From an uncultured Chloroflexia bacterium (lineage in GTDB: Bacteria > Chloroflexota > Limnocylindria > QHBO01): a stretch of DNA of 64,000 nucleotides. Position numbers and translations under genes: made by a program. This document shows, in pieces, positions 3,866 through 47,951 of the stretch; position 1 is the first letter of the stretch, and the number at the start of each line of letters is the position of its first letter. Under the pieces are notes generated by a model. It searched no databases and was not told the origin of the DNA. It was given only the letters and a program-made list of their open reading frames with translations. The DNA lies in contig CAWANT010000006.1 in NCBI GenBank assembly GCA_963783495.1, positions 199,799 to 263,798 on the forward strand, given 5' to 3'.

Positions 3866-6800
3866 TCATCGGGCGGCGTCCGGACAGATATCGCGGAACG
3901 GGCAGAAGCCGCAGCGCATGGGCGTCGGGTTGGCGCCGAAGTCGCCGGCTCGGATCCCCTCGCTCACGGTCGCGACCTGGCTGGCCGCCTTCTCCAGGCG
4001 CTTCGGCGTCGGCGCGCTGCGCCCGACCATGCCGGACTCCAGGAAGTGGAGGGCCAGCTCATCGGGCAGGCGCCCGTGCTGCGACTCATAGGCGAGGGCG
4101 TAGAGCGAGAGCTGCAGCGAGTCGCGTGAGCGACGCGCCGCCGTGGCCGGGTCGCGCACGTCGGCCGACTTGTAGTCGGTGATGACCACCCGCCCGTCGC
4201 CGTCGAGGTCGACACGGTCATAGCGGCCGCGTACCCGGTCGCGACCCAGGACCACCGAGAAGTCCTCCTCGACCGCCACCGGGCGAGCGGGCTCGATCTG
4301 CTGCTCGTCCCAGAAGCGATCGAGTGCCTCGCGGGCCGCCGCGCGGCGCGCCTCCTCATGCTGCTGGGTGAGGAACCCCACCGACTCCCAGGCGGCGTCA
4401 AGCTCGGCCTGGAGCTCTTCGCGGCGACGTGGACAGGCCGGCCAGCTGACGGCGGTGGTAGGCCTGCACGGCGGCGTGCAGGGCACGGCCGTAGGCCATC
4501 TGGTGCGACGCGGCGGTCGGGAGCCGGATGACGTGGGCGTAGCGATAGCGCGCCGGGCAGTCCAGGTAGTCACTGATCTGGCCGTAGCTGAGCCGCAGCT
4601 GGCGGTCACCCAGGCTGACGGGCTTGGCCGGCGCAGCCGGCGGCGTCTGCGCGCGCTGGTTGCGGGCCAGGCGCTCGGCGACACTGGGCCGCAGCATGTC
4701 GGCTGGGGTCGCCGGCGGCAGGTCCAGCGCCTCCAGCAGGTACGGACTCGGCCGTCGCGCGCTGCGGGTGCCGTAATCGCGTGCCCAGCTCAGGTGGAGC
4801 GCTTCGCGGGACCGCGTCATGCCGACGTAGAACAGCCGGCGTTCCTCGGCCAGATGGTGGTCGCCTTCGGGCGTCGGCTCCCGGACCAGCGACGTCGGCA
4901 GCGGCAGCAGATCGCCGCGTGAGCGGGTCGGGAAGCGATCGTCGACCAGGCCGACCATGTGGACGATCGGGAACTCGAGGCCTTTGGCCTTGTGGTAGGT
5001 CAGGACGTGTACCGCCTCGCCATGGTCGAGATCAACGTCGGCGGTGGAAGGGTCGTCTCCCGCCTCCATCAGCGTATCGAGCTGCGCGACCAGGAACGGC
5101 AGCCGGTCGTCCCGCAGCAGGCCGGCCTGGCGACGGACGATCTCGAAGAAGCGCGCCACGTTGGCGAGCGCGCTCCTCCCCGCCCTCGCGCGCCTCGCGC
5201 GCCAGCCGCCCAAGCCAGCCGGTGCTGGTGACGAAGTGGTAGAGCAGCTCTCCGGCGTTACGCTCCGTGCTCAGCTGCCGGTGCTGATCGAGGCTGGCCA
5301 GCAGGCGCTCGATCACCTGCATGGCCCGCGGACCGAAGCGGGCAGGCTCCCCGTCGCGCGCGTGGCGGAGCGACTGCTCCAACGGCGGTCCGACGCCGGC
5401 TGGCCGCATTCAGCGCGACGGTCACGTCGCCTGCGGATCCAGCCCGAAGATCTCGGAGGTGGCCAGGTCGTAGCAGCTGACGGAGTCCTCCGGGTCGTTG
5501 ACGGCGCGCAGGAAGCTGACCAGCAGCCGGACCTCCGGCTGGTGGTAGAGCCCGGCCGTGCCGGAGAAGCGCCACGGGATGCGCGCCATGTTCAGTGCCC
5601 GCAGGATGGGATCCGCATCGCGGTTGGTGCGCACCAGGATCGCGTGGTCGCCCGGGACTGCGGCCGGTGCGGAGGGAGTCGCCGATGCGCTCGGCCAGCG
5701 CATCGGCCTCGTCCGAGCCGGTATCGAAGGCCAGCAGCTGGATCGGCCCGCCATCGCCGATCGGCTGCTCGAAACGAGCCCGGGCGATCAGCCGCTTGTC
5801 GAGGCCCTCGCGCGACTCCAGCCGGTCCGGGTCGTTGTGCTGGATGAGCCGATAGGCGGCGTCCAGGATTGGCTGACGGCTGCGGAAGTTGTCGTTCAGC
5901 ACCACGCTGCCGGCGCGCGGAAACGCGGCGCGGAAGCCGAGGATGTTCGACAGGGCGGCGCCCGCGGAAGCGATAGATGCTCTGGTCGTCGTCGCCCACG
6001 ACCGTCACGTTGGCCGTGGCCGAGCCGGCCAGCAGCTTGACCAGCTCGAACTGCGCGTGGTTCGTGTCCTGGAACTCGTCGACCAGGATGTAGCGGTAGC
6101 GCTGCCGCTCCTCGCTCAGGACGGCGGGATGCTCGCGCAGCAGGCGCAGCGCCAGGCTCACCTGGTCGCCGAAGTCGAGCCGATCGTTGGCCCGCATCAG
6201 CTCGCTCGTAGGCGACGTAGAGCGCGGCCAGCTCCTTCTGCTGGGCCGCCCGTTCGGCCAGCGCCGTCGTCGAACGGCGCTTCGGCGGCCGCGGCCGCCA
6301 GCCGCTTGCGCGGCTGACAGGTACTCCGCGGGCGCGACGTCCTCGTCGCGGGCGCGGCTGATCAGAGTGACCAGGGCGTGGAGGAAGCGGGTCGGGTCGC
6401 CCAGCGGGCGGTATCGGTCGAGTGGCAGCTCGAACAGGTGCTCGCGCAGGAAGATCACCTGCTCGGCGCGCGACATGACGGTGGAGCGGTCCGAGAGGCC
6501 GGCCTCGAGCGCGTGGTCGCGCAGCAGCCGGTCGCCGAAGGCGTGGAAGGTGCTGATCACCGTGTCGGTGTAGCCGTACGGGCACCAGCCGGTCGACGCG
6601 CTCGGTCATCTCCAGCGCCGCCCGATCCGTGAACGTCAGCGCCAGGATCTCCGACGGCTTGGCGCGTTTCTCGGCGATCAGCCAGGCGATGCGGCGGGTG
6701 ATGACCGTGGTCTTGCCGGTTCCTGCACCGGCCACGATCAGCAGCGGGCCGTTGCCATGCGTGACCGCCTTGCGCTGGCGGGCGGTCAGGTCGGCCAGCA

Positions 6801-7086: not shown

Positions 7087-9108
7087 ATGGCCGATCAGCT
7101 CGAAATCGGCGCACATGGCATCACCGCCATCCTGGCTACCTGGCTGGGCCTGATCGTCCTGACCCGGGCCGGCCGGCAGCGCGGTGCACAGGTCTTCGCG
7201 TTCGTCACCGGCCTGCTGGTGGTCTGGTCAGTGGCCATTCTCATCGAGCGGCTCAGCACCGACCCCGGCGTTGACGTGGCGTTCAACGCGATCGAGGACG
7301 TCGCCGCCTTCCTGCTCCCCGCCGCCACCCTGCACGTCGCCCTCGCGCTCGCTGTCGAGGGCCGCCTGTCCGTGACGCAACGACGAACGCTGATCGCGTC
7401 GTACGTCCTCTGCGGCGCGGTCGCACTCGAAGCCGTCTTCCTCCCGGAGCAGCAGCTCGCGGTGTCCCCGCCGCACCTCGAGCCATTCGGCATCCCCGGC
7501 GAGGTCGTGGGCTGGGCGTGGATCCTGGCGCGCCTCCTCATCCTGGGCGCAGCGCTGTACTGGATCGTCGCGGCCCTCCGCGTGGCCGGGGATGATGTGG
7601 CCCGCCAGCGTCAATTGCAGGCCGCGCTGGCCACCGTCGGAGTCGGCGCCCTGGGCGGCATCGTGCGCATCCTGCCGGGAGTATCGGAGAGCGATCCCTG
7701 GATCGGCGTGTCGCTCGTCACGGCCTCCATGGTCCTCGCCGCCTACGCCGTCTTCGTGACAGGGCCTCTTCATGTCGACCGACGCGGCCGGTCGAGCGTT
7801 CTCGTACACGATGGTGGTGGGCATCGGGGTCACCTTCTTCGTCACCCTGCTGGTGGCCCTCGAACGCGTGACGCAGGAGGTCCTCCACATCGAGCTGCCG
7901 ATCATCACCGGCCTGGCGCTGGTGGTGACCATTGCCCTGCTCGGCCCGCTCACCGATCTCGTACGTCGCGTGCTGCGCGGACGTTCACCCCGCGACCGCG
8001 CCTACTACCGCTTGCTCCAGGCGCTGGGCGAGGAGGTGCTCACCGCCCAGAGGCCGGACACCGCGGTCCTGCCCGCCCTTGCTCGCATGGTCCGCATCTT
8101 CCGCCTCCGCGGCGCTGCCGTCCTCGCGCCGACTGGCGAGCTGCTGGCCGAGCACGGGACGCTCGAGCCGGACGACCCATTGGCGCTGCGGCTTCCGCTG
8201 CAGTACCGCGACCTCACCGAGGGAACGGTGATCTTCGGCGCGAAGCAGACCGGCCTGCCGTTCACCGAGCCGGAGACCGACCTGCTGACGTCGGCTGCCG
8301 GCTACCTCGCCGCGTCGCTGAGCCTGGCGGTGCGAAGCGATCAGGAGGCTGCCGCGCTGGAGACACTGTCGGCGGAGCGCGACGCGGTGATCAGCCGGGG
8401 TTCGGAACTGAGCGAGGCGCTGGTCGAGGCGGTCTCCGCGACCACCGGCCTGCACGTCTTCGCCCTCGGCCCGCTGCGGGTCGAGCGCGACGGTGAGCTG
8501 GTCCAGCGCTGGGGCGGCGAGAAGGCGGGCACGCGCCAGGCGGAGGCCGTCTTCGCCTTCCTCTACGACCGCGGCGAGCATGGCGTGGCCAAGGACGAGT
8601 TCGTTGAGCTCATCTGGCCCGATGTCGACCTGGAGCGGGCCGACCTGGCCTTCCATCGCACGCTGGGCGGCCTGCGCGGCGACGCTGGAGCCCGGACGGC
8701 GAGGGGGCGATCGCGGCGGCGCCATCAGCTTCCACAACGACCGGTACCGGCTCGATCCGGAGCTGATCGGCTGGTCCGATGCGCAGGCCATTCGAGGAGG
8801 CGATGAGCGCCGCCAGCGCCGGCGCCGACCCGGACGTCGCGTTGCAGCATCTGGAGCGGGCGCGGTCGTTGTACCGCGGCGACTACCTGGATGATTGCCC
8901 GTTCTATGGCGACTCGGCGCAGGTCGAGGATCGCCGCGAGCTGCTTCGCGGGCGGTGCGTCGACCTGCTCCTTGCCCTTGGCGAGCGGTACGAGGCCCGC
9001 GGCGACCGCCCCGCGGCGGCCGCCTGCTTCCGCCAGGCGCGCCAGGTTGCCGGCGACGAGCTGCCGCTGGCGGACGAGGCCCTCAGCCGGCTCGGCGCCT
9101 CGGCCTGA
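7087..9108 (+). CDS. membrane-anchored SARP-type transcriptional regulator (multi-TM N-domain, GAF-like middle, OmpR-type wHTH + BTAD; frame-disrupted)
   Basis: ATG at 7087 follows GAGGGGAGCA. ORF 7027..8496 supplies about 6 TM helices up to ~7760. ORF 7772..8806 continues with another TM stretch, a GAF-like region and LHVFALGPLRVERDGELVQRWGGEKAGTRQAEAVFAFLY...LIWPDVDLERADLAFHRTLGGLR. ORFs 8493..8894 and 8779..9108 supply ISFHNDRYRLDP...LERARSLYRGDYLDDCPFYGDSAQVEDRRELLRGRCVDLLLALGERY (BTAD). Confidence 0.7.
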
Positions 9109-23510: not shown

Positions 23511-24832
23511 ATGCCCGAAGCGCTAACTGAATCCTTCTGCGAGCGGTGCGGCACTCGGTACGAGTTCGCCGCCCCGACGCGAGCTGAACACCATGCGCAA
23601 GACGCGCGGGCTGATCTCCGGGCTCAAGAACTACATCATGAGCCAGGACGCCCTCGGCGACGCCGTCGGCGACGCGATGCGCAGCCAGGAAGAGGCGCTC
23701 GCCTCCCAGCAGCTCGAAGCGTTCCACGAGTCGTTCAACTTCTGCATCAACTGCCGCCAGTACACCTGCCCAACTGCTGGAACGACGACGCCGGCCGCTG
23801 CCGCACCTGCGTCCCGATCGCCGGCACCGACGACCTGCTGGAGCGCTTCGAGGCCTCGTTCCACGCGCAGCATCCGGAGATCGCCGCGGCCGCCGCCAGG
23901 CGGAGATGGAGCAGGCCGACCTCAACCGCCGGCTTGGCCTGGAGACCTGGCCCAGCGAGGACCTGGGGAACGCCCCGACCAATGGCGCCGAGCCCGCCTG
24001 GCCGGAGTCCGAGATGGCGCCCGCCGACATGACGCCCGCCGAGCCGGAGCCGATGGTGGCGGAGGTCGAGCCGGAGCCGGAGCCGATGGTTGCCGAGTTC
24101 GAGTCCGAGCCGGAGCCGGCGGTTGCAGACGCGGTCATGGCCGCCGCCGCCATTGATGCGGTCAATGCCGACGACTACCCGCCGCTCCGCATCCTCATGT
24201 GGGAAGAGGACGCGGCGATCGCCCTCGAGCCCGAGCCGGAGCCCGTCGTGGCCGAGGTCGAGCCGGAGGCCGAGCCCGTCGTGGCCGAGGTCGAGCCGGA
24301 GGCCGAGCCCGTCGTGGCCGAGGTCGAGCCGGAGCCGAGCCGTCGCCGCCGAGGTCGAGCCGGAGCCGGTGGTGGCCGCGGAGGTCCTCGAGCCGGAGCC
24401 GGTCATGCCGGCACCGGAGCCGATCCGTCCCGTCAGCGAAACCATCATCCACATGCCACAGCAGCTGCCGCCGCAGGCCGCCGGATGCGGACCGCGTGGC
24501 CGCCGAGGCGGAATCCCGCGTGGATCGCCGCCCGCAAGGCGCAGCTCGACCTGCTGGGGATCGGCGATCCGGGCGAGGGAGCCGTGGGTCCGGACCGCTC
24601 GAACGTCCTGCCATACCGCTCGAGCGGCGCATCGGTCTCCGCCAGGGAGATGGCCATCCGCACCGCCTCCGGGCTGCCGGCCCCTGGCGCCTTCTGGGAG
24701 GCTTCGGCGCGCGAGGTCGCCGGCGCCATGAGCCATGTCGGCGTCCAGTCGTGCGGCGAGTGCGGCCTGTCGCTCAGCGCCTCGGCGCGGTTCTGCCGGC
24801 GGTGCGGCACGCCGCAGGCCCGGTCGGCCTAG
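23511..24832 (+). CDS. zinc-ribbon protein with Glu/Pro-rich tandem-repeat linker (frame-disrupted)
   Basis: The N-terminus MPEALTESFCERCGTRYEF plus CINCRQYTCPNCWNDDAGRCRTC spans ORFs 23502.., 23593.. and 23502..24032. The EPEPxVAEVEPE repeats and the C-terminal CGECGLSLSASARFCRRCG are in ORF 23906..24832. Confidence 0.6.
24226..24410 (+). repeat. 33-bp in-frame tandem repeat (3 perfect + about 2 degenerate units) encoding EPEAEPVVAEV
   Basis: GAGCCCGTCGTGGCCGAGGTCGAGCCGGAGGCC occurs at 24239, 24272 and 24305. Degenerate units follow to ~24410 and older copies lie at ~24040-24130. One unit carries the indel that breaks the frame. Confidence 0.9.
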
Positions 24833-40691: not shown

Positions 40692-40728
40692 GGGCGGCTA
40701 GCTCAACGGCAGAGCAAGTGACTCTTAA
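40692..40728 (+). repeat. exact copy of the 5' 37 nt of tRNA-Lys (att-like direct repeat / pseudo-tRNA)
   Basis: GGGCGGCTAGCTCAACGGCAGAGCAAGTGACTCTTAA is identical to 45516-45552. Identity ends in the anticodon loop. Downstream only weakly resembles a T-arm (GATCGAACCGCTG vs GTTCGAATCCCTG). Confidence 0.9.
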
Positions 40729-40814
40729 GCATCCCCGATCGAACCGCTGTGGTCGCTGAGCGTGGCGACTGGAGCGAAAGCCGTCTCAGTTATAGGCTCG
40801 ATTCGTGATCCGCC

Positions 40815-41761
40815 TTGGGTGAGACAGGACTCCACGTCGTCGCCGGAATCGGCGCGGTCGGCCGTGCCGTCGTCGGTGAGCTCGTAGCGCGAGGACTTAC
40901 TGCGCGAGCCGTCGCGCGCCATCAGGCGTCCGCCTTGCCCGCCGAGGTCGAGCTGGTCGAGGCTGACCTGGCGGACCCGTCATCTGCCGCGCTGCCCTTG
41001 CCGGCGCGACCGTCGTCTACCACGCCGCATCTGCGCCGTACGATCGCTGGCCAGCCCTCCTGCCGGCGCTCATGACGGGCATCCTCGATGGCGCTGCCGC
41101 GACCGGTGCCCGAGTCGTCTACGCCGACAACCTCTACGCCTACGGCCCGGTCGCCGGACGACTGACCGAAGACCTTCCGTATCGGGCGACGGGACCAAAC
41201 GGCCGCGTCCGGGCAGCCCTTGCCGACGAGCTGATGGCGGCGCACGCGGCCGGCCGCGTCCGGGCGACGATCGGTCGGGCGTCGGACTACTACGGTCCGT
41301 GGGGCCGCCAGTCGACCGCAGGCGACCGCCTCTTCCTGCCAGCCCTCGCCGGGAAGCCGGCGCAGGTCCTCGGCGATCCGGACCAGCCCCACACGTTCAC
41401 GTACCTCGCTGACTTCGCTCGGGCGCTGGTGACCCTTGGCACGGACGAACGCGCGCTCGGCGAGGTGTGGCACGTGCCGAGCGCGGAGACAGTAACGACC
41501 CGGGAGTTCGTGAGCCTGGTCTACGAGGTGGCTGGTCATCCGGCGCAACTACGCGTGCTGCCCTCGGTGCTCCTGGCCGGCCTCGCGCTCGTCAGCCCGA
41601 TGCTCCGTGCGGTCCGCGAGCAGCAGTACCAGCGGGTCGCGCCGTGGGTCGTCGACCACGCCAAGTTCGAGAGCGCGTTCGGGACAACCGTGACGCCCCA
41701 CCGCGAGGCGATCCGCACGACGCTCGACTGGTTCGCCAGCAGCGCCGGGTCATCCTCCTAA
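40815..41761 (+). CDS. NAD(P)-dependent epimerase/dehydratase-type SDR oxidoreductase (one frame break ~40985)
   Basis: ORF 40815..41075 (HVVAGIGAVGRAVVGELVARG, Rossmann fold) joins ORF 41072..41761 (VVYADNLYAYGP...GRASDYYGP...TFTYLADFARALV). Confidence 0.75.
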
Positions 41762-41820
41762 GGCCGGCGACGCCAGCCGCTCGTCGTCCTCGCGGATATG
41801 GTCACGCTGCCACGGAGCGG
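41762..41820 (+). repeat. island repeat R1
   Basis: GGCCGGCGACGCCAGCCGCTCGTCGTCCTCGCGGATATGGTCACGCTGCCACGGAGCGG. It starts 1 nt after the TAA stop of the SDR gene. Confidence 0.85.
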
Positions 41821-41905
41821 CAGCCGAGGTCACCGGCGACGCCAGGGCTTGCTGGCCGTCTATCCGCGCTGCGGTATCGCCGTGGCCGTAGGCAGCTCTC
41901 TGGCC

Positions 41906-42387
41906 TCAGAGACTGACCCTGATCTTGGTCTCGCAATCATCGTATACGATGTCGTTGGGACCGTAATAGGTGACGTCGGCACCATCGCCGCACATAACAA
42001 AGTCGACGTCGCCATCGCCGCCAGATAGATCGTGTCGTCACCGGGGCCGCCGTTGTTTCCGTCACGCCCATCACCCGGCCGGAGAATGTCATTCCCGCGA
42101 CCGCCGATGAGACTATCTTCGCCGGCGTTGCCGTAGAGCGTGTCATGGCCGACGAATCCCCGAACGCGGTCGTTTCCCGGGCCTCCGTACAGAGTGTCGG
42201 CCCCACCGAAGCCTTCGACGATGTCTCGCCCGCCGAGGCCGCGGATGATGTCACGCTGTCCCGTTCCATACAGCGAATCTCCGGAATCAGTTCCGATGAT
42301 CACGGCTGCCGCGACAGGCCCGGTAGCGACTAACACCAGGCAGGCGCCAAGGCTCACGGAGTACAGAAGTCGCCGCAGTAGGTTCAC
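41906..42387 (-). CDS. secreted calcium-binding (RTX/hemolysin-type) repeat protein (one frame break ~42022)
   Basis: ORF 41860..42387 has a signal-like N-terminus (MNLLRRLLYSVSLGACLVLVATGPVAAA) followed by GxGxD-type nonapeptides (LYGTGQRDIIRGLGGRDIVEGFGGADTLYGGPGNDRV...). After the break my reading gives GGDGDVDFVMCGDGADVTYYGPNDIVYDDCETKIRVSL*. Confidence 0.7.
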
Positions 42388-42462
42388 GGGTGTACCTCAG
42401 ATTGTTTCGAGGGATCGAGTATCAACTGAGTCCCCTGCGGAAGGACTGCGGCGCGCGTGACG

Positions 42463-42507
42463 GGCCGGCGACGCCAGCCGCTCACCATCCTGGGGTGGCT
42501 CCTCAGG
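42463..42507 (+). repeat. island repeat R2
   Basis: GGCCGGCGACGCCAGCCGCTCACCATCCTGGGGTGGCTCCTCAGG. Confidence 0.85.
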
Positions 42508-42547
42508 TCCTGTTCCCGATGACTGCTCGCCGTGCTAGCGTCCGGCG

Positions 42548-42824
42548 ATGCCATTGCTGCCCCGCGATCGGTGGTCGGCCGCTAGGGCCATCTGGTTGAG
42601 CGCGGGTGTCCTCGCCGTCGCCCTGGCCGTCGGGCTCCTGTTCTTCCGGCCGAACCTGACCCGCTTCAGCCAGTGCGATGGCTATCTCCCGGGGTGGATG
42701 CTCGGCAGCAGGACTACCAGGGTGGAGGGTGCGCGGAGGCGCTGCCGTCGGACGAGGCCGCCGCTGACGCCGACTGGACGCTGTATTGCCTCGGGTATTG
42801 CACCGGACCGTTCTACCAACCGTA
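42548..42824 (+). CDS. small membrane-anchored Cys-containing protein (one frame break ~42690)
   Basis: ORF 42548..42910 opens MPLLPRDRWSAARAIWLSAGVLAVALAVGLLFF...FSQCDGYLPG. After a shift my reading gives VDARQQDYQGGGCAEALPSDEAAADADWTLYCLGYCTGPFYQP*, stopping at 42822-42824. Confidence 0.45.
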
Positions 42825-42850
42825 GAAGGCAGGGCGCCGAGTTAGGGCGG

Positions 42851-42900
42851 GGCCGGCGACGCCAGCCGCTCACCATCCACGGATGGCCACGGCACGGAGC
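42851..42900 (+). repeat. island repeat R3
   Basis: GGCCGGCGACGCCAGCCGCTCACCATCCACGGATGGCCACGGCACGGAGC. Confidence 0.85.
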
Positions 42901-42914
42901 CTCAGACTAGCGGT

Positions 42915-43253
42915 ATGCAGATCGGCGATTGGCGGGGCACGACGCGCAAGCTATGGCGCCTGTTCCTGCGCGAGCTGCCGATCATGCTGGGAATATGGCT
43001 CGTGGTAGGTATCGGCCTAGCCGTTTATGGCTATCTCCAGGGCGAGTCGATTGGCGATGCGCTGCGCACGGCCCTCGTGTTCCTACCGCTGGCGGTCCCA
43101 CTGTCCCCGGTCCTCTGGCTACACCATGAACACCAAGCGCGGCGACCGAGCGCCCTGCCGGCGATCGGGCTGGGCTGCCTTTGGGCCCTCGTGACCCTGC
43201 CCCTGGCCGTCGCGACAGCTGTAGGCATCGCCAACCTGCTGGGCGTCGAGTGA
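42915..43253 (+). CDS. hypothetical multi-TM membrane protein
   Basis: Intact 112-aa ORF with three hydrophobic spans (IMLGIWLVVGIGLAVYGYL; ALVFLPLAVPLSPVLWL; LGCLWALVTLPLAVATAVGIANLL). Confidence 0.55.
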   Translation: MQIGDWRGTTRKLWRLFLRELPIMLGIWLVVGIGLAVYGYLQGESIGDALRTALVFLPLAVPLSPVLWLHHEHQARRPSALPAIGLGCLWALVTLPLAVATAVGIANLLGVE

Positions 43254-43276
43254 ATCGCCGATTACGTGGGGGCCGG

Positions 43277-43337
43277 GGCCGGCGACGCCAGCCGCTCGCC
43301 GTCTTGGCGGCATGGTCACGCTGCCACGGAGCGCCGG
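43277..43337 (+). repeat. island repeat R4
   Basis: GGCCGGCGACGCCAGCCGCTCGCCGTCTTGGCGGCATGGTCACGCTGCCACGGAGCGCCGG. The outer GGCCGGCG / CGCCGG ends are inverted. Confidence 0.85.
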
Positions 43338-43411
43338 GCCTGGTCGATGCTGGTGGCCGCTTACTGGCGGCATTCCGCCAAGCTGTAGCCTGTTCGTGTT
43401 TCGTCTATTGG

Positions 43412-43937
43412 CTACGGCGTGACCACGCAATCGCTCGGCGGCGTCACCGGCGTCGAGAGCGGGCCGGTGGCCGAAAGGCCGTAGAAAGTCGCCACCAGCA
43501 CGGTCGGCACCGTCCCGGGATTAAAGGCAGTGTGGACGTGGCCGTGGCCGGGGTCGAAAAAGGCCTCGTTGGTGCCGTAGTGACGCTCGACGCAGTCCAT
43601 GGCAGCTCACGGACGCCGCGGCCCGCCGCTGGCCACGTTTACCACCACCGAGCTCTCTGTGCGAGTGCCAAGGGAACATAGCACCCGGGTGGACGGTGAA
43701 CATCACGACCTGGGTGAAGGACGGGTCCTCGAAGTTGATTACGTTGGTGGCGTGGCCGTCCAGCTTGTGCTTGAACTTCAGATCGACGTTGTTGGTGAAT
43801 GCAGCGCGCCCGGTGAGGGGCTGGACCTCGATTGGAAGCTGGGCCAACGTAGGCATCACCGCCACAGCCGCAATGAGGCCCACGGCGACAAGTACTGCGA
43901 ATCCTAGGGATAGTGATTCGACGGTGCATGGGTTCAC
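43412..43937 (-). CDS. exported cupin-domain protein (frame-disrupted)
   Basis: ORF 43521..43937 has a signal/TM (LSLGFAVLVAVGLIAAVAVMPTLA) followed by VMFTVHPGAMFPWHSH. ORF 43412..43600 supplies FFDPGHGHVHTAFNPGTVPTVLVATF. Confidence 0.6.
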
Positions 43938-44111
43938 CTCGGCTACCAGGCGGGCCAGTTTGCCAAGTGGCTCAGCGCAGTCAGGGCAGCACGGCGGCCA
44001 AGGATGAGGGACTGCGCGTCATTGCCTCCCGTTCACAGCAGCGTAGTGCCGGCGTAGCTGGTTGGACATGACGAATGATTCTTCGCGGTGCGCGGAGGCA
44101 ACATACGACGC

Positions 44112-44153
44112 GAGCCGCCATCCTGGGATGGTCACGCTTCCACGGAGCGCCGG
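44112..44153 (+). repeat. island repeat R5 (5'-degenerate)
   Basis: GAGCCGCCATCCTGGGATGGTCACGCTTCCACGGAGCGCCGG. Confidence 0.75.
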
Positions 44154-44179
44154 TCCGACGCCATTCTCAACCTGTCGAC

Positions 44180-44308
44180 TTACTGCTCGCTTATCGGTTC
44201 GAATTCGTACCCCTGCGCCTCCAGGTTGAGTTCGACACCATCGGCCCACGCGCGCGGCGCCCCGCACCGCGGGCAGCGCAGCTCCGCCAGCTGCGCGCCG
44301 GGCGACAT
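44180..44308 (-). CDS. possible 42-aa ORF downstream of the recombinase
   Basis: My reverse reading gives MSPGAQLAELRCPRCGAPRAWADGVELNLEAQGYEFEPISEQ*. Third-codon G/C is high. I recognise no homologue. Confidence 0.3.
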   Translation of the reverse strand: MSPGAQLAELRCPRCGAPRAWADGVELNLEAQGYEFEPISEQ

Positions 44309-44457: not shown

Positions 44458-45385
44458 TCACAGCCGGTCCCGCGGGCTGTGGCGCTCGAAGGCGGCCCGC
44501 GCCCGCTCGTCGGCCGGCGCTGGCGCCGTAGCGGCCGACCATCTGGCGGCTCTTCCAGCCGGCCAGGCGCATCAGGTCGCCTTCCTGCATGCCATCGGCG
44601 AGCAGCGCGTGCGCGAAGCCGTGGCGGAAGGTGTGCGGGTGGGCCGTGACGCCGGCCTCGCGCGGCGCGGCGCTTCACCACCTGGGCGATGCCGGAGGCG
44701 GTGAGCCGGCCCTGCTTGCCGATCCACAGCACTCGGCGCCGGCGTCCGTGGCGCGCGCGGATGCGCAGGTAGCGGTCGAGCACCTGCGCGGTCTTGCGGC
44801 CGAACGGCGTGGCCCGCGGGCGCCGGCCCTTGCCCAGCACCACCACCATCTTGTGGTCGAAGTCGACGTCGGCTGACGCGCAGGCCGGCGATCTCGGCGC
44901 GGCGGATGCCGCGAGTCGACGAGCAGCGACAGGATGGCGGCGTCGCGCCGGGACTCGAAGTCGGTGCCGTCGACCGTGGCCAGCAGCGCCTTCAGCTGCT
45001 CGTCGCGCAGCATCTCGGGCGGCTCCTCGGGGATGGCCGGCGGCTTCATGTTCCGCATCGGCGACTCGCGGATCTCGCCCTCGGCGAGCAGCCATTGAAG
45101 AACTGCTGCAGCGAGCGGAAGCGGTTGGCCCGGCTCGACGGCTTCCAGCCGTTGGCTCCAGGTCGAGCAGGAAGGATTCGACGTGCTCGCGGTCATAGCG
45201 TCGACCGCGGTCGGCATGCCGGAGCGCGGCAGGAAGGCGTCGAGCTGCTCGACGGCCTTGCCATAGGTGAGCACGGTGATGGCGGCTCTTGTTCTCGGCG
45301 GCCAGGTGCCGCAGGAACGAGGCGCGCAATGGACCGAGCGCGGAGAGGGCGGTAGAATCGGCACCTGGGGAAGGGTCTTGGCCAT
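44458..45385 (-). CDS. tyrosine-type site-specific recombinase/integrase (XerC/D-like; frame-disrupted)
   Basis: Fragments:
- 44675..45400: MAKTLPQV..., LTYGKAVEQLDAFL, LRDEQLKALLATVDGTDFESRRDAAILSLLVDS
- 44364..45329: DVDFDHKMVVVLGKGRRPRATPFGRKTAQVLDRYL
- 44318..44590: MQEGDLMRLAGWKSRQMVGRYGAS, containing the catalytic Tyr
My reading ends ...ADERARAAFERHSPRDRL* at 44458. Confidence 0.8.
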
Positions 45386-45515: not shown

Positions 45516-45590
45516 GGGCGGCTAGCTCAACGGCAGAGCAAGTGACTCTTAATCACTAGGTTCAGGGTTCGAATCCCTGGCCGCTCACCA
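45516..45590 (+). tRNA. tRNA-Lys (anticodon CUU)
   Basis: GGGCGGC-TA-GCTC-AACGGCA-GAGC-A-AGTGA-CTCTTAA-TCACT-AGGTT-CAGGG-TTCGAAT-CCCTG-GCCGCTC-A-CCA. It is 75 nt and forms a full cloverleaf by hand. Confidence 0.92.
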
Positions 45591-45719: not shown

Positions 45720-47951
45720 CTACTTGAGATCGATCACCTCGACGTCACCTCGCCGGCGAACGACCCGGACGTCCACGCCCAGCGGCTGGCGCCCGATGGC
45801 CAGGTCGACCGTCGCGTCGCCGACCCGCAGGCCGGTGATCGACAGCGTGTCCAGGAAGTCGGGTAGCCGCGCGTGCCGGAAACGAACCTGGCGGGCCGGC
45901 GCGTCAACCTCCAGGCCCAGGACGGCCTGCAGCAGCATGAAGACCGAGCCCGCCGCCCAGGCCTGCGGCGAGCAGGCAACCGGGTAGCGGGTGGCGTCCT
46001 CGCCGTGGCGACGGGTGAAGCCGCAGAACAGCTCCGGCAAGCGCGCGAGGTCGAACGTGTGGCTGGCATCGAACAGGCCGGCCAGCAGGCGCGCGGCCTG
46101 ATCGTGGCGGCCATAGCGCGCCAGGCCTACGGCCGCGATGGCGTTGTCGTGCGGCCAGATCGAGCCGTTGTGGTAAGAGATCGGGTTGTAGCGCGCCTCG
46201 CCGGCCGCCACGGTGCGAATCCCCCAGCCTGAGAACGAGGCGTCCGAGAGGAGTGTCTCGGCGACCCGAGCCGCCCGCTCGGGCAGGGCGATCCCCGACC
46301 ACAGCACGTGGCCCGCATTGGAGGCGCGCACCCGGCAGCGTTGCTTCTCGCCGTCGAGCGCCAGCGCGTAGGTGCCCAGCTCCTCGTCCCAGAAGGCGGC
46401 GTCGAACGCACGCTGCAGGTCGGCTGCACGCCGCTCCTGCTCGCGCGCCATCTGCCCATGACCGAGCTGCGCCGCCAGCTCGGACGCCCCCACGCGCGCG
46501 GCGTAGGCGTACGCCTGCAGCTCGCATGTGGCGATCGGTCCCTCCGCCATCCGACCATCGGCATGGAAGATGGAGTCGTGCGAGTCCTTCCAGCCCTGCT
46601 GGATGAGCCCACGCTCGTTGCTGCGCGCGTACTCGAGGAAGCCGTCGCCGTCGGGGTCGCCATGGCGGTCCATCCATCCAGCGCGCGCTCGACGTGCGGC
46701 CAGAGCCGCTGGGCCATGGCGTGGTCGTTGGTCTGGCGCCAGTGTCGCGCCGCCAGCATGACGAACAGCGGGGTGGCGTCGTGACTACCGTAGTAGCGGG
46801 CGAACGGCACCTCGCCGGTGGCGGACATCTCGCCCTGCCGCACCTCGTGCAGGATCTTGCCGGGCTCGGCATCGTGAACGGGATCGCTCCGTTCCGCCTG
46901 GTGGGCGGCCAGGTAGCCCAACACCCCACGCGCGATCTGCGGCGCCACCCACAATGTCTGCATCGCAGTCACGAGCCCGTCGCGACCGAAGACCGTGCTG
47001 AACCACGGGACCCCGGCATACGGATACAGGCCGTGGGGCGTGCGGGAGCTGAGCATGGCCACATCCGCCGCGCTGCGCTCGAGCCAATCGTTGAAGAGAG
47101 CGTTCGAGCTCGACACCCTTGCCGCCGATCGCACGAGGCGCGTCAGGCTGCCGCGCGCCCGCTCCGAGGCCGTGTCGAAGTCGGGAGCCGACGCTCGGCG
47201 CGCCCGGCCGGTCTCACAGGCTATGGCCACGTCGATGGTCATCGGCCGTTCATCGGGAAGCGCCAGGTCGAAGTCGGCCTCGCCCGGCTCGATCCGGATG
47301 GGCGGTGACGAAAATGTGATGCGCGTGCGGCGAATGACCCCGTCGAGGCCGACGTAGCGCAGCACGACCGCCCGTTCGCTGAGCAGGGCCGGCAGGTGGT
47401 GGCCGCGCCCGCGCTCGATGCACGCCGCGCACCTCGAAGAGGTCGGCGAAGTCTGCCCGGAAGCGTAGCGTCAGGACGAGGTGCACCGGCTCGCGGGCGA
47501 AGCTGCGCGCCACCAGCCGCTCGTGGCAGACGCCGTCCCACAGCACCTTGGTGCGCGACAGGTGGACGCTGCTGTGCGGCAGCCGCTGCGGACCGCGACC
47601 GACATCGGTATTGGTCAGGTCGAAGGCGAGGCGCGAGTTGTCCCGCTTGGCGGTGGATCCCAGCAGCAGCGGGCGGTGGCCGGCGAGGCGCAGCACGAGA
47701 CCCGAGACATGCCGGGTGCCGCGGTGATAGATGCCCTCCTCCCCCATGCCCTCCGGCAGGATGTCGCCATGGCGATCGAAGACGGCGAACGACTCGCCGT
47801 GCTTGAGGACCTGGTCGTAGGTATCGGCCAGCTCGGCGCCGGCTTGGACGTCGTAGCGCTGCGCGTCGAGCTCGGAGATCGCCGGCAGGCCACCCAGCGC
47901 ACCGGTGTCGGCGTCGCGCCGGCCGGCCTCGCCCGGCGCGGCCATCGGCAC
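45720..47951 (-). CDS. amylo-alpha-1,6-glucosidase / glycogen-debranching-enzyme-like protein (two frame breaks)
   Basis: ORFs 47250..47951 (N-terminal domain, ESFAVFDRHGDI), 46127..47365 (GVPWFSTVFGRDGLVTA) and 45720..46673 (GFLEY...GWKDSHDSIF...YHNGSIWPHDNAI) are collinear. Confidence 0.85.

Follow-up and report, generated by a model that had tools for sequence, protein, structure and literature searches.

The window analysed here, a stretch of 64,000 nucleotides from an uncultured Limnocylindria-lineage Chloroflexota bacterium (contig CAWANT010000006.1 of assembly GCA_963783495.1), contains between about 40.7 and 45.6 kb a genomic island in which hairpin-forming repeats of a single orientation alternate with small, unrelated genes beside a tyrosine recombinase gene. 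A preliminary description of this DNA had read the arrangement as a cassette array following integron logic, with the recombinase as its partner. The frame of the island is that of a tRNA-integrated element, as that description had proposed: a tyrosine integrase gene lies beside a tRNA gene, part of which is directly repeated at the far end. The tRNA-Lys(CTT) gene at 45516..45590 on the plus strand (found by ARAGORN, and with 67.7 bits by the Rfam tRNA model) forms the proximal attachment site and right end of the island, and the distal attachment repeat at 40692..40731 (plus strand), a copy of the 5′ half of the tRNA-Lys gene, forms its left end; positions 40692–40731 and 45516–45555 constitute a 40-nt direct repeat of 98% identity. 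The same arrangement of tRNA and distal repeat is present in two related contigs, L052 and L059 (loci compared with the window are referred to by L numbers). What is duplicated in the window, in L052 (12968–13004) and in L059 (14018–14054) is the tRNA 5′ half (nucleotides 1–37/40), and the integrase gene abuts the tRNA 5′ end, the mirror image of the usual 3′-end arrangement. A 47-nt duplication of the 3′ part of the tRNA lies on the other side in L059 (4789–4835), where it bounds a second small islet with a cupin gene.

The repeats within this frame were located by exact matching and by profile search. The 21-mer GGCCGGCGACGCCAGCCGCTC, which forms the 5′ block of the repeat, occurs exactly at 41762, 42463, 42851 and 43277, always on the plus strand, and the 3′ block sequence GGTCACGCTGCCACGGAGCGCCGG occurs at 41800, 43314 and 44130 (0 expected). 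An nhmmer profile made from full-length copies matched 41760–41824, 42463–42498, 42850–42903, 43277–43340 and 44106–44156, again all on the plus strand, so that the five co-oriented copies of the preliminary description, the last of them degenerate at its 5′ end, were recovered at the positions it had given. R1 (41762..41824; nhmmer E 6e-16) is full length with a degenerate 3′ outer block; R2 (42463..42500) consists of the 5′ block and hairpin only, being cut after the hairpin and lacking its 3′ half, and its orthologue in contig L064 is a complete copy; R3 (42851..42903) lacks 3 nt internally and is degenerate at its 3′ end, an odd variant also present in L064 at 7232–7282; R4 (43277..43371) is complete and includes the loosely conserved tail, its end near 43371 having been set by blastn among copies; and R5 (44106..44197) is 5′-truncated, lacking the first ~9 nt, with CTTAC and CTTAT in its tail. 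A sixth, heavily decayed copy had been missed: R1b (41833..41890, plus strand like the others), in which CCGGCGACGCCAG is the sole intact part, gives a weak nhmmer match at 41833–41845 and aligns with an L064 repeat at 5952–5999, and it was recognized only through that orthologue. Beyond these, the 64-kb window contains no further match to the 21-mer at up to three mismatches (0.04 expected) and its other 59 kb hold no credible profile match, in agreement with the earlier statement that the repeat occurs nowhere else in the window.

The consensus of the repeat can be written (G)TAG-GGCCGGCGACGCCAGCCGCTC-[GCCATCC loop GGATGGC]-CACGCTGCCACGGAGCGCCGGCC, followed by a loosely conserved tail, for a total unit length of ~65–110 nt. 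Four parts are thus distinguished: the invariant 5′ block, a 6–7-bp hairpin with a free loop of 3–13 nt, the 3′ block, the end of which pairs with the start of the 5′ block, and the tail. The hairpin variants on which the preliminary description had based its case for compensating change (CCATCC/GGATGG, CCATCC/GGGTGG and GCCG/CGGC) are as it quoted them, and covariation of the central hairpin is evident across a family alignment of 31 copies, on which all structure counts were made: pair 29/56 is GC in 15, AU in 6 and GU in 5, pair 32/53 is AU in 20, GC in 4 and GU in 2, and one copy carries a compensated CCATCG/CGATGG change. Little variation is seen in the outer 8-bp stem (GGCCGGCG/CGCCGGCC) or in a potential middle stem, and the few changes there are uncompensated, so the flanking blocks are conserved as sequence. 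Compared with dinucleotide shuffles, the 67-nt core folds better as a family, with a mean z of −1.45 on either strand (n = 34 copies); single window copies fold no better than shuffles, and there is no strand preference in folding once composition is controlled. A coding explanation was rejected because loop lengths differ by non-multiples of three. Several further structural candidates were also set aside: a tRNA-like reading (a 7-bp acceptor-like stem and a T-like arm) was negative with ARAGORN and the Rfam tRNA model and its T-like stem is uncompensated; an RNAalifold consensus placing a 5′ hairpin in the invariant block has no informative variation; a second tail hairpin (GCCGC-TTACTG-GCGGC) is inconsistent across copies; and tandem CTTAY units, two of which lie ~11 nt apart in 12/49 tails, are enriched without being constant enough to define the tail.

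The genes between the copies are small and unrelated to one another, as had been described, and they number one or two per unit rather than exactly one. To the left of R1, an NAD-dependent epimerase or short-chain dehydrogenase/reductase (SDR) gene occupies 40815..41761 on the plus strand in two frames (open reading frames, ORFs, 40815..41075 and 41072..41761; Pfam NAD_binding_10 and Epimerase), and its TAA stop directly abuts the repeat. A secreted RTX-type calcium-binding repeat protein (module 2; HemolysinCabind, 3.1e-23) is encoded on the minus strand at 41860..42387. A plus-strand small ORF region follows at 42548..42825, its frame uncertain (ORFs 42548..42910 and 42673..42825), for which no homologues and no Pfam domain were found, and then a gene for a 112-aa multi-transmembrane (multi-TM) protein (module 4; 42915..43253, plus strand), which has a 96% identical homologue, P0241. 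The last gene, on the minus strand at 43412..43937 in two frames (ORFs 43521..43937 and 43412..43600), encodes an exported cupin-like protein that has no Pfam match and is recognizable only from the HxH and PxGxxHxxxN motifs in its translation. The earlier identifications of these products therefore stand for the RTX protein and, with a frameshift, the SDR/epimerase, and for the likewise frameshifted cupin by its motifs only. Directly upstream of the cupin gene, at 43943..44038 on the minus strand, lies a c-di-GMP-II-GAG-like aptamer (RF03169, full-length, 38.3 bits against a gathering score of 40, E 3e-6). Variant c-di-GMP-II-GAG/GCG aptamers scoring above gathering also lie beside repeats in L039 (613–697, plus strand) and L050 (14265–14350, plus strand); all three aptamers are ~70–95 nt from the repeat 5′ end and antisense to the repeat, and the genes behind them encode the exported cupin in the window, a small secreted protein in L039 and a 442-aa protein in L050. 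As one block, repeat and riboswitch are 71.5% identical between L039 and L050.

The integrase gene itself, at 44461..45385 on the minus strand, is interrupted by several frameshifts and was reconstructed from a frame map; intact homologues have 309 aa and reach 81% identity at most. Two frameshifts are also carried by the housekeeping glycogen-debranching (GDE) gene across the tRNA (45720–47747), and those in the integrase, SDR and cupin genes are therefore probably indel errors of long-read assembly rather than signs of decay. The reconstructed protein has Pfam Phage_integrase and SAM_1 domains and scores best with the NCBIfam models XerC (163 bits) and XerD (157 bits), consistent with its first description as XerC/D-like. 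With the integron-integrase model TIGR02249 it reaches 59 bits, in two stretches, against a cutoff of 265, and with PRK15417 it reaches 32 bits against a cutoff of 435.

Four related contigs share the order GDE, tRNA-Lys, integrase, variable stretch and DUF3105 with the window; no recorded protein matches the DUF3105 neighbour exactly. Their integrases are 70–74% identical to that of the window, their GDE genes ~70–76% (main alignments) and their DUF3105 genes 66–79%; the divergence of the integrase is thus similar to that of its host neighbours, which suggests a long-standing residence at the tRNA-Lys site. The cargo between integrase and DUF3105 shows zero nucleotide similarity among the syntenic islands (flanks, 73–82% identical), so the comparison of array content in relatives that the preliminary description had proposed reveals complete turnover between syntenic relatives, with two window modules recurring elsewhere (see below). 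Repeat remnants are present in the cargo of three syntenic islands (L050, L052 and L053/54), always antisense to the integrase, as in the window. No repeat remnants were found in the L059 tRNA-Lys island, integrase homologues at 63–73% identity have islands without repeats, and distant homologues (63%) reside at tRNA-Lys(TTT) beside DnaB/AAA_25-type genes, again without repeats. Conversely, no recombinase lies in reach of the repeat arrays c2, c7, L003, L060 and L063 (spans of ~5 to 22 kb), and tblastn of the integrase against the array loci gave no match. This family is made up of ordinary integrases of tRNA-Lys islands; in our reading the window array is cargo of an old tRNA-Lys island, and its XerC/D-like integrase does ordinary island integration independently of the repeats. 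The proposed link between repeats and tyrosine recombinase is accordingly not supported, and the data essentially agree with an outcome that the preliminary description had itself named as speaking against it, a recombinase that groups with ordinary integrases and has no site beyond the tRNA repeat.

The distribution of the repeat beyond the window was established by scanning the 21-mer across 185,579 species genomes. Genuine copies were confined to metagenome-assembled genomes (MAGs) labelled Limnocylindria or Chloroflexia, plus one short contig binned as Gemmatimonadales, the remaining matches being single chance occurrences in unrelated sequence. A gapped-pattern scan of metagenomes added 17 loci, and four further arrays came from the genomic surroundings of a small protein associated with arrays and of a cassette protein of the window, bringing the family to 64 copies (E < 1e-3) at 30 loci. 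The copies are always clustered in arrays, the opposite of the genome-wide dispersal that had been named beforehand as speaking against a cassette array: in MAG MFD00392.bin.2.52, all five exact 21-mers fall within two stretches of 24 and 16 kb, on contig 2 (c2; 112–136 kb, ~13 copies) and contig 7 (c7; 280–296 kb). Viral contigs, plasmids and phages contain no copy, and no Rfam 15 family matches the repeat at gathering or at E ≤ 10. We infer that the host lineage of the family is Limnocylindria-type Chloroflexota; the family is lineage-restricted and previously undescribed.

Nine arrays are each 100% co-oriented (chance, 2^-37), with the numbers of copies counted being five in the window, 10 on contig 2, four on contig 7, seven in L060, six in L063, five in L064, four in L003, three in L039 and two in L034. 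The genes within the arrays show no such bias, 36 being sense and 45 antisense to the repeat, and stops and starts serve with similar frequency as the nearest gene boundary (15/14 on the repeat 5′ side and 15/10 on the 3′ side); these gene figures derive from a rough gene caller based on third-position GC content (GC3). That polarity is strict whichever way the genes run speaks for a process at the DNA level and against a transcriptional signal. An association of repeat orientation with local GC skew was considered and dropped, as it amounted to a trend among loci that are not independent. The cargo of the arrays consists of small single-domain proteins (GNAT, DinB, cupin, SnoaL, SRPBCC and DUF1801), and arrays abut tRNA-Lys, tRNA-Leu, tRNA-Cys and tRNA-Thr genes or lie beside genes for major facilitator superfamily (MFS), FAD-binding and single-stranded DNA-binding (SSB) proteins. 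In four tRNA-adjacent arrays, every repeat 3′ end faces the tRNA.

Two side observations concern the neighbourhoods of these arrays. A 74-aa protein family (MAPLGALSQAWVSAEASLPLGWQI..WRFDDLW..EGP.FDDY..DRLRERRG; about 500 homologues) recurs inside arrays, mostly antisense to the repeats (L029 2130–2354; L003 3519–3743; L016 945–1091 and 5980–6126; L052 11794–12018; and others); it is also present in one tRNA-Lys island and absent from the window, it has no Pfam domain, and its AlphaFold2 (AF2) model (pLDDT 68, alpha-beta3-alpha) has no fold match in the PDB. The same protein is encoded, together with a large serine recombinase and an AAA_25 protein, by a 10-kb element in L062 (2719–12680) that lies between TP_methylase and SSB genes and is absent from L064 (13532–13534). 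In L064, contig 2/L002 and contig 7, the SSB, MFS_3 and FAD-binding genes nearby have arrays beside them, which marks this neighbourhood as a hot spot.

The arrays share individual modules in otherwise unrelated surroundings. One comparison is with L064, an 88-kb contig found via P0241, the homologue of the window multi-TM protein; its eight co-oriented repeats adjoin genes for SSB and NAD synthase, at a locus other than the tRNA-Lys island. Window positions 42853–43287, comprising R3, the multi-TM ORF and the first 11 nt of R4, are 96.3% identical to L064 7234–7662, and the rest of R4 is only ~80% alike; in the L064 counterpart of R4 (7650–7700), 35 nt (CGGTGACGCCGGTCGACGGCTGACCGGGCGCGGGG) are inserted immediately behind GGGGCCGGCGA, at the very point at which the 96% identity stops. 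The RTX module (R1b, the gene and the first half of R2) is 81% identical to L064 at the nucleotide level (gene part, L064 6009–6612), with a patch of 97% identity at its right end, and the DNA between R2 and R3, like that outside both modules, is unrelated between the two loci. Comparable relationships were found elsewhere: a 521-nt module that begins at the first base of a truncated repeat is 97.9% identical across two arrays of one genome; L039 and L045 are 92% identical onward from a shared repeat and differ in module content upstream of it; and L060 and L064 share a 1.2-kb gene at 94% identity, the match ending at a repeat tail in L064. By these alignments, modules recur in unrelated surroundings in the manner of mosaics, and the arrays appear to be mosaics of one- or two-gene modules jointed at the repeats. 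The positions of breakpoints inside repeats were discarded as evidence because alignments run through any shared repeat by construction, and neither the crossover position nor the type of recombination can be read from them.

We see about an even chance that the repeats serve as portable recombination joints of a mosaic flexible-gene array. In such a scheme, recombination between two direct copies would yield a circle with one repeat and the intervening genes; the circle, or other incoming DNA, would recombine with any resident copy and be inserted with the same polarity; and repeated insertion would build co-oriented arrays with arbitrary gene direction. The catalyst could be host homologous recombination acting on 65–100 nt of near-identity, or a hairpin- or strand-specific enzyme supplied in trans, and both the unevenness of the identities and the variety of the truncations are in line with host homologous recombination and gene conversion. 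Several points weigh against this reading. No circle, excision product or clean single-module gain or loss was found among the compared loci, and with the repeat itself being shared, the comparisons would not tell site-specific from homologous recombination. Truncation affects many copies, at positions that vary, and identity is patchy within modules, features that look like decay or gene conversion and not like a precise system. Pure homologous recombination also leaves the first attachment of a repeat to a new gene unexplained, and the array gene calls rest on the rough GC3-based caller described above.

A precise system would be provided if the repeats were the recombination sites of a hitherto undescribed, integron-independent gene-cassette system of the Chloroflexota, in which a strand- or hairpin-specific enzyme encoded elsewhere recognizes the folded repeat and, acting in trans, excises and inserts the modules that repeats bound, and the arrays are analogous to clusters of attC sites lacking integron-integrases (CALINs). 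The enzyme could be a non-IntI tyrosine recombinase, possibly of the Xer-like family of the window, or an HUH/Y1 enzyme, and such a system would account for strict polarity without bias in gene orientation. The repeat has an attC-like architecture of conserved, partly inverse-complementary ends around a variable hairpin; its 3′ ends face the tRNA in four tRNA-adjacent arrays; the orientation of the remnants relative to the integrase is constant in four relatives; and the insertion in the L064 counterpart of R4 falls exactly at the end of the 96% identical block. Set against these features, no recombinase recurs beside the arrays, the window integrase scores far below the IntI cutoff and has homologues without repeats, truncation points and homology breakpoints vary, and ORF orientation is unbiased, and we consider a dedicated cassette system of this kind a possible but rather unlikely explanation. 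The attC boxes are missing as well, as had been noted at the outset: a regular-expression scan for R″/R′ pairs (RYYYAAC/GTTRRRY) returned none in the island, L003, L060 and L063, and two distinct pairs in c2 and one in c7, the level of shuffled sequence, and the repeat consensus ends without AAC or GTT. A perfect GCCTAAC...GTTAGGC pair bounding 57 nt past the last repeat of c2 (23594–23650; L008 7594–7650) is probably a chance occurrence.

The arrays also have features in common with integrons and CALINs. Like those systems, they are built on co-oriented structured sites of ~60–110 nt, in which a variable hairpin lies between conserved ends, and each unit holds one or two small genes that are unrelated to one another; the cargo is of cassette type (GNAT, DinB, cupin and SnoaL proteins, for example), content changes quickly at fixed chromosomal spots, and modules are common to several arrays. 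Unlike them, they have no IntI, RYYYAAC/GTTRRRY boxes, attI or divergent integrase; their ORFs are not co-oriented with the sites, many of which are truncated; and the recombinase of the window points into the array and targets a tRNA. Of the integron pattern of co-oriented sites that each follow one promoterless ORF in the same orientation, the co-orientation of the sites holds and that of the ORFs does not, and some units have a riboswitch leader of their own. Integron membership fails on IntI, attC boxes and ORF orientation; the reading as a cassette array keeps support, in weaker form, from its structure and from the sharing of modules.

Among published systems, that which on layout most resembles the window appears to be the recombinase-associated acquired interbacterial defence cluster rAID-1 of Bacteroidales (bioRxiv 10.1101/471110). 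There, an array of small genes, skewed in composition and with repetitive intergenic sequences 'reminiscent of integrons', begins past the stop codon of a XerD-family recombinase gene; the genes are co-directional with the recombinase, and homologues of the latter at >50% identity are confined to that context (bioRxiv 10.1101/471110). An rAID-1 cluster is defined by a 5′ XerD-like recombinase at least 44% identical to BF9343_RS08045 with two or more genes after it in its own direction. The combination, in these clusters, of a XerD-like recombinase and a downstream array whose intergenic sequences are repetitive lends some support to a cassette system. In contrast to rAID-1, gene direction is mixed in the arrays described here, downstream of the window integrase too, and the integrase family occurs without repeats and the repeats without integrase; the comparison also gave no evidence for immunity genes among the repeat-array cargo.

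The repeat could alternatively be a selfish or regulatory element resembling repetitive extragenic palindromes (REPs) or miniature inverted-repeat transposable elements (MITEs), for example one mobilized by a REP-associated tyrosine transposase (RAYT/Y1) or a gene-end RNA hairpin, that piles up in tolerant flexible regions. Co-orientation would then stem from strand-specific single-strand insertion, and the modules would be genes that merely happen to lie between insertions. The repeat is, as REPs and the bacterial interspersed mosaic elements (BIMEs) composed of them are, a GC-rich imperfect extragenic palindrome that often follows genes and is lineage-specific (PMC3733652, PMC2817692); several copies begin 0–5 nt past a stop codon. 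GTAG precedes the G-run in 7/43 intact copies and TAA in 4/43, far above composition, and the former, in this minority of copies, recalls the (G)TAG ahead of the REP stem (PMC3733652, PMC2817692). Decayed and truncated copies are common, and the loop variant GAGGTACA recurs beside unrelated genes in one genome. REPs, on the other hand, are 20–40 nt long, dispersed in over 100 copies and usually of alternating orientation (PMC3733652), whereas the present units are at least 65 nt long, number roughly 15–25 per genome and are array-confined and strictly co-oriented. No RAYT was found in the array contexts examined, and no Y1 transposase turned up in ~130 kb of them; the parity of stops and starts at the nearest gene boundary argues against a terminator or untranslated-region role; and no terminal inverted repeats or target-site duplications are visible in an alignment of 19 copies with flanks, which are not conserved, so that the hallmarks of a MITE are missing. 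In copy number, distribution and orientation the family does not behave as a REP/BIME, and we regard the broader possibility of a selfish or regulatory repeat as rather unlikely, on a par with the cassette system.

The tRNA frame suggests one further origin, in which each unit is the remnant of a small integrative element and the repeat a conserved piece flanking its attachment site at the tRNA. The adjacency of arrays to tRNA-Lys, tRNA-Leu, tRNA-Cys and tRNA-Thr genes and their polarity towards the tRNA are in keeping with this, as is an integrase fragment in L034, where positions 1793–2063 encode the C-terminal part of a different tyrosine recombinase just past a repeat-bounded lipoprotein module; that module recurs in L039, followed there by a repeat and then tRNA-Leu. 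Serial-integration scars are most improbable, however: this one repeat is found at four tRNAs and also at loci away from tRNAs, a spread that would call for different integrases. The individual repeats are not accompanied by tRNA fragments, a single distal half-tRNA bounding the whole window island, and none was found at the far ends of the L039, L029 and L063 arrays within the sequence examined. In its outer frame the window matches tRNA-targeting islands with Xer-like or phage-type integrases, having tRNA-Lys, an integrase, cargo and a direct repeat of part of the tRNA, all conserved at this locus in relatives, and it departs from them in the duplication of the tRNA 5′ half and in the position of the integrase at the tRNA 5′ end; the frame leaves the internal repeats unexplained.

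To our knowledge, no system other than integrons that stockpiles single genes behind structured sites is well understood, and the origin of their cassettes is unknown. If a second, unrelated repeat family does the same structural job, the building of arrays on hairpin repeats would be a more general solution, found here in an abundant uncultured soil lineage, with a family that has neither IntI nor attC and shows no constraint on gene orientation. The family would then offer a tractable case in which to ask whether plain homologous recombination on portable repeats can sustain a cassette economy. The repeat profile also serves as a marker of flexible-genome regions in Limnocylindria MAGs, and the repeats may explain breaks in assemblies of these genomes, since a repeat forms the end of contig L045 and the metagenome contigs that bear repeats are mostly short.

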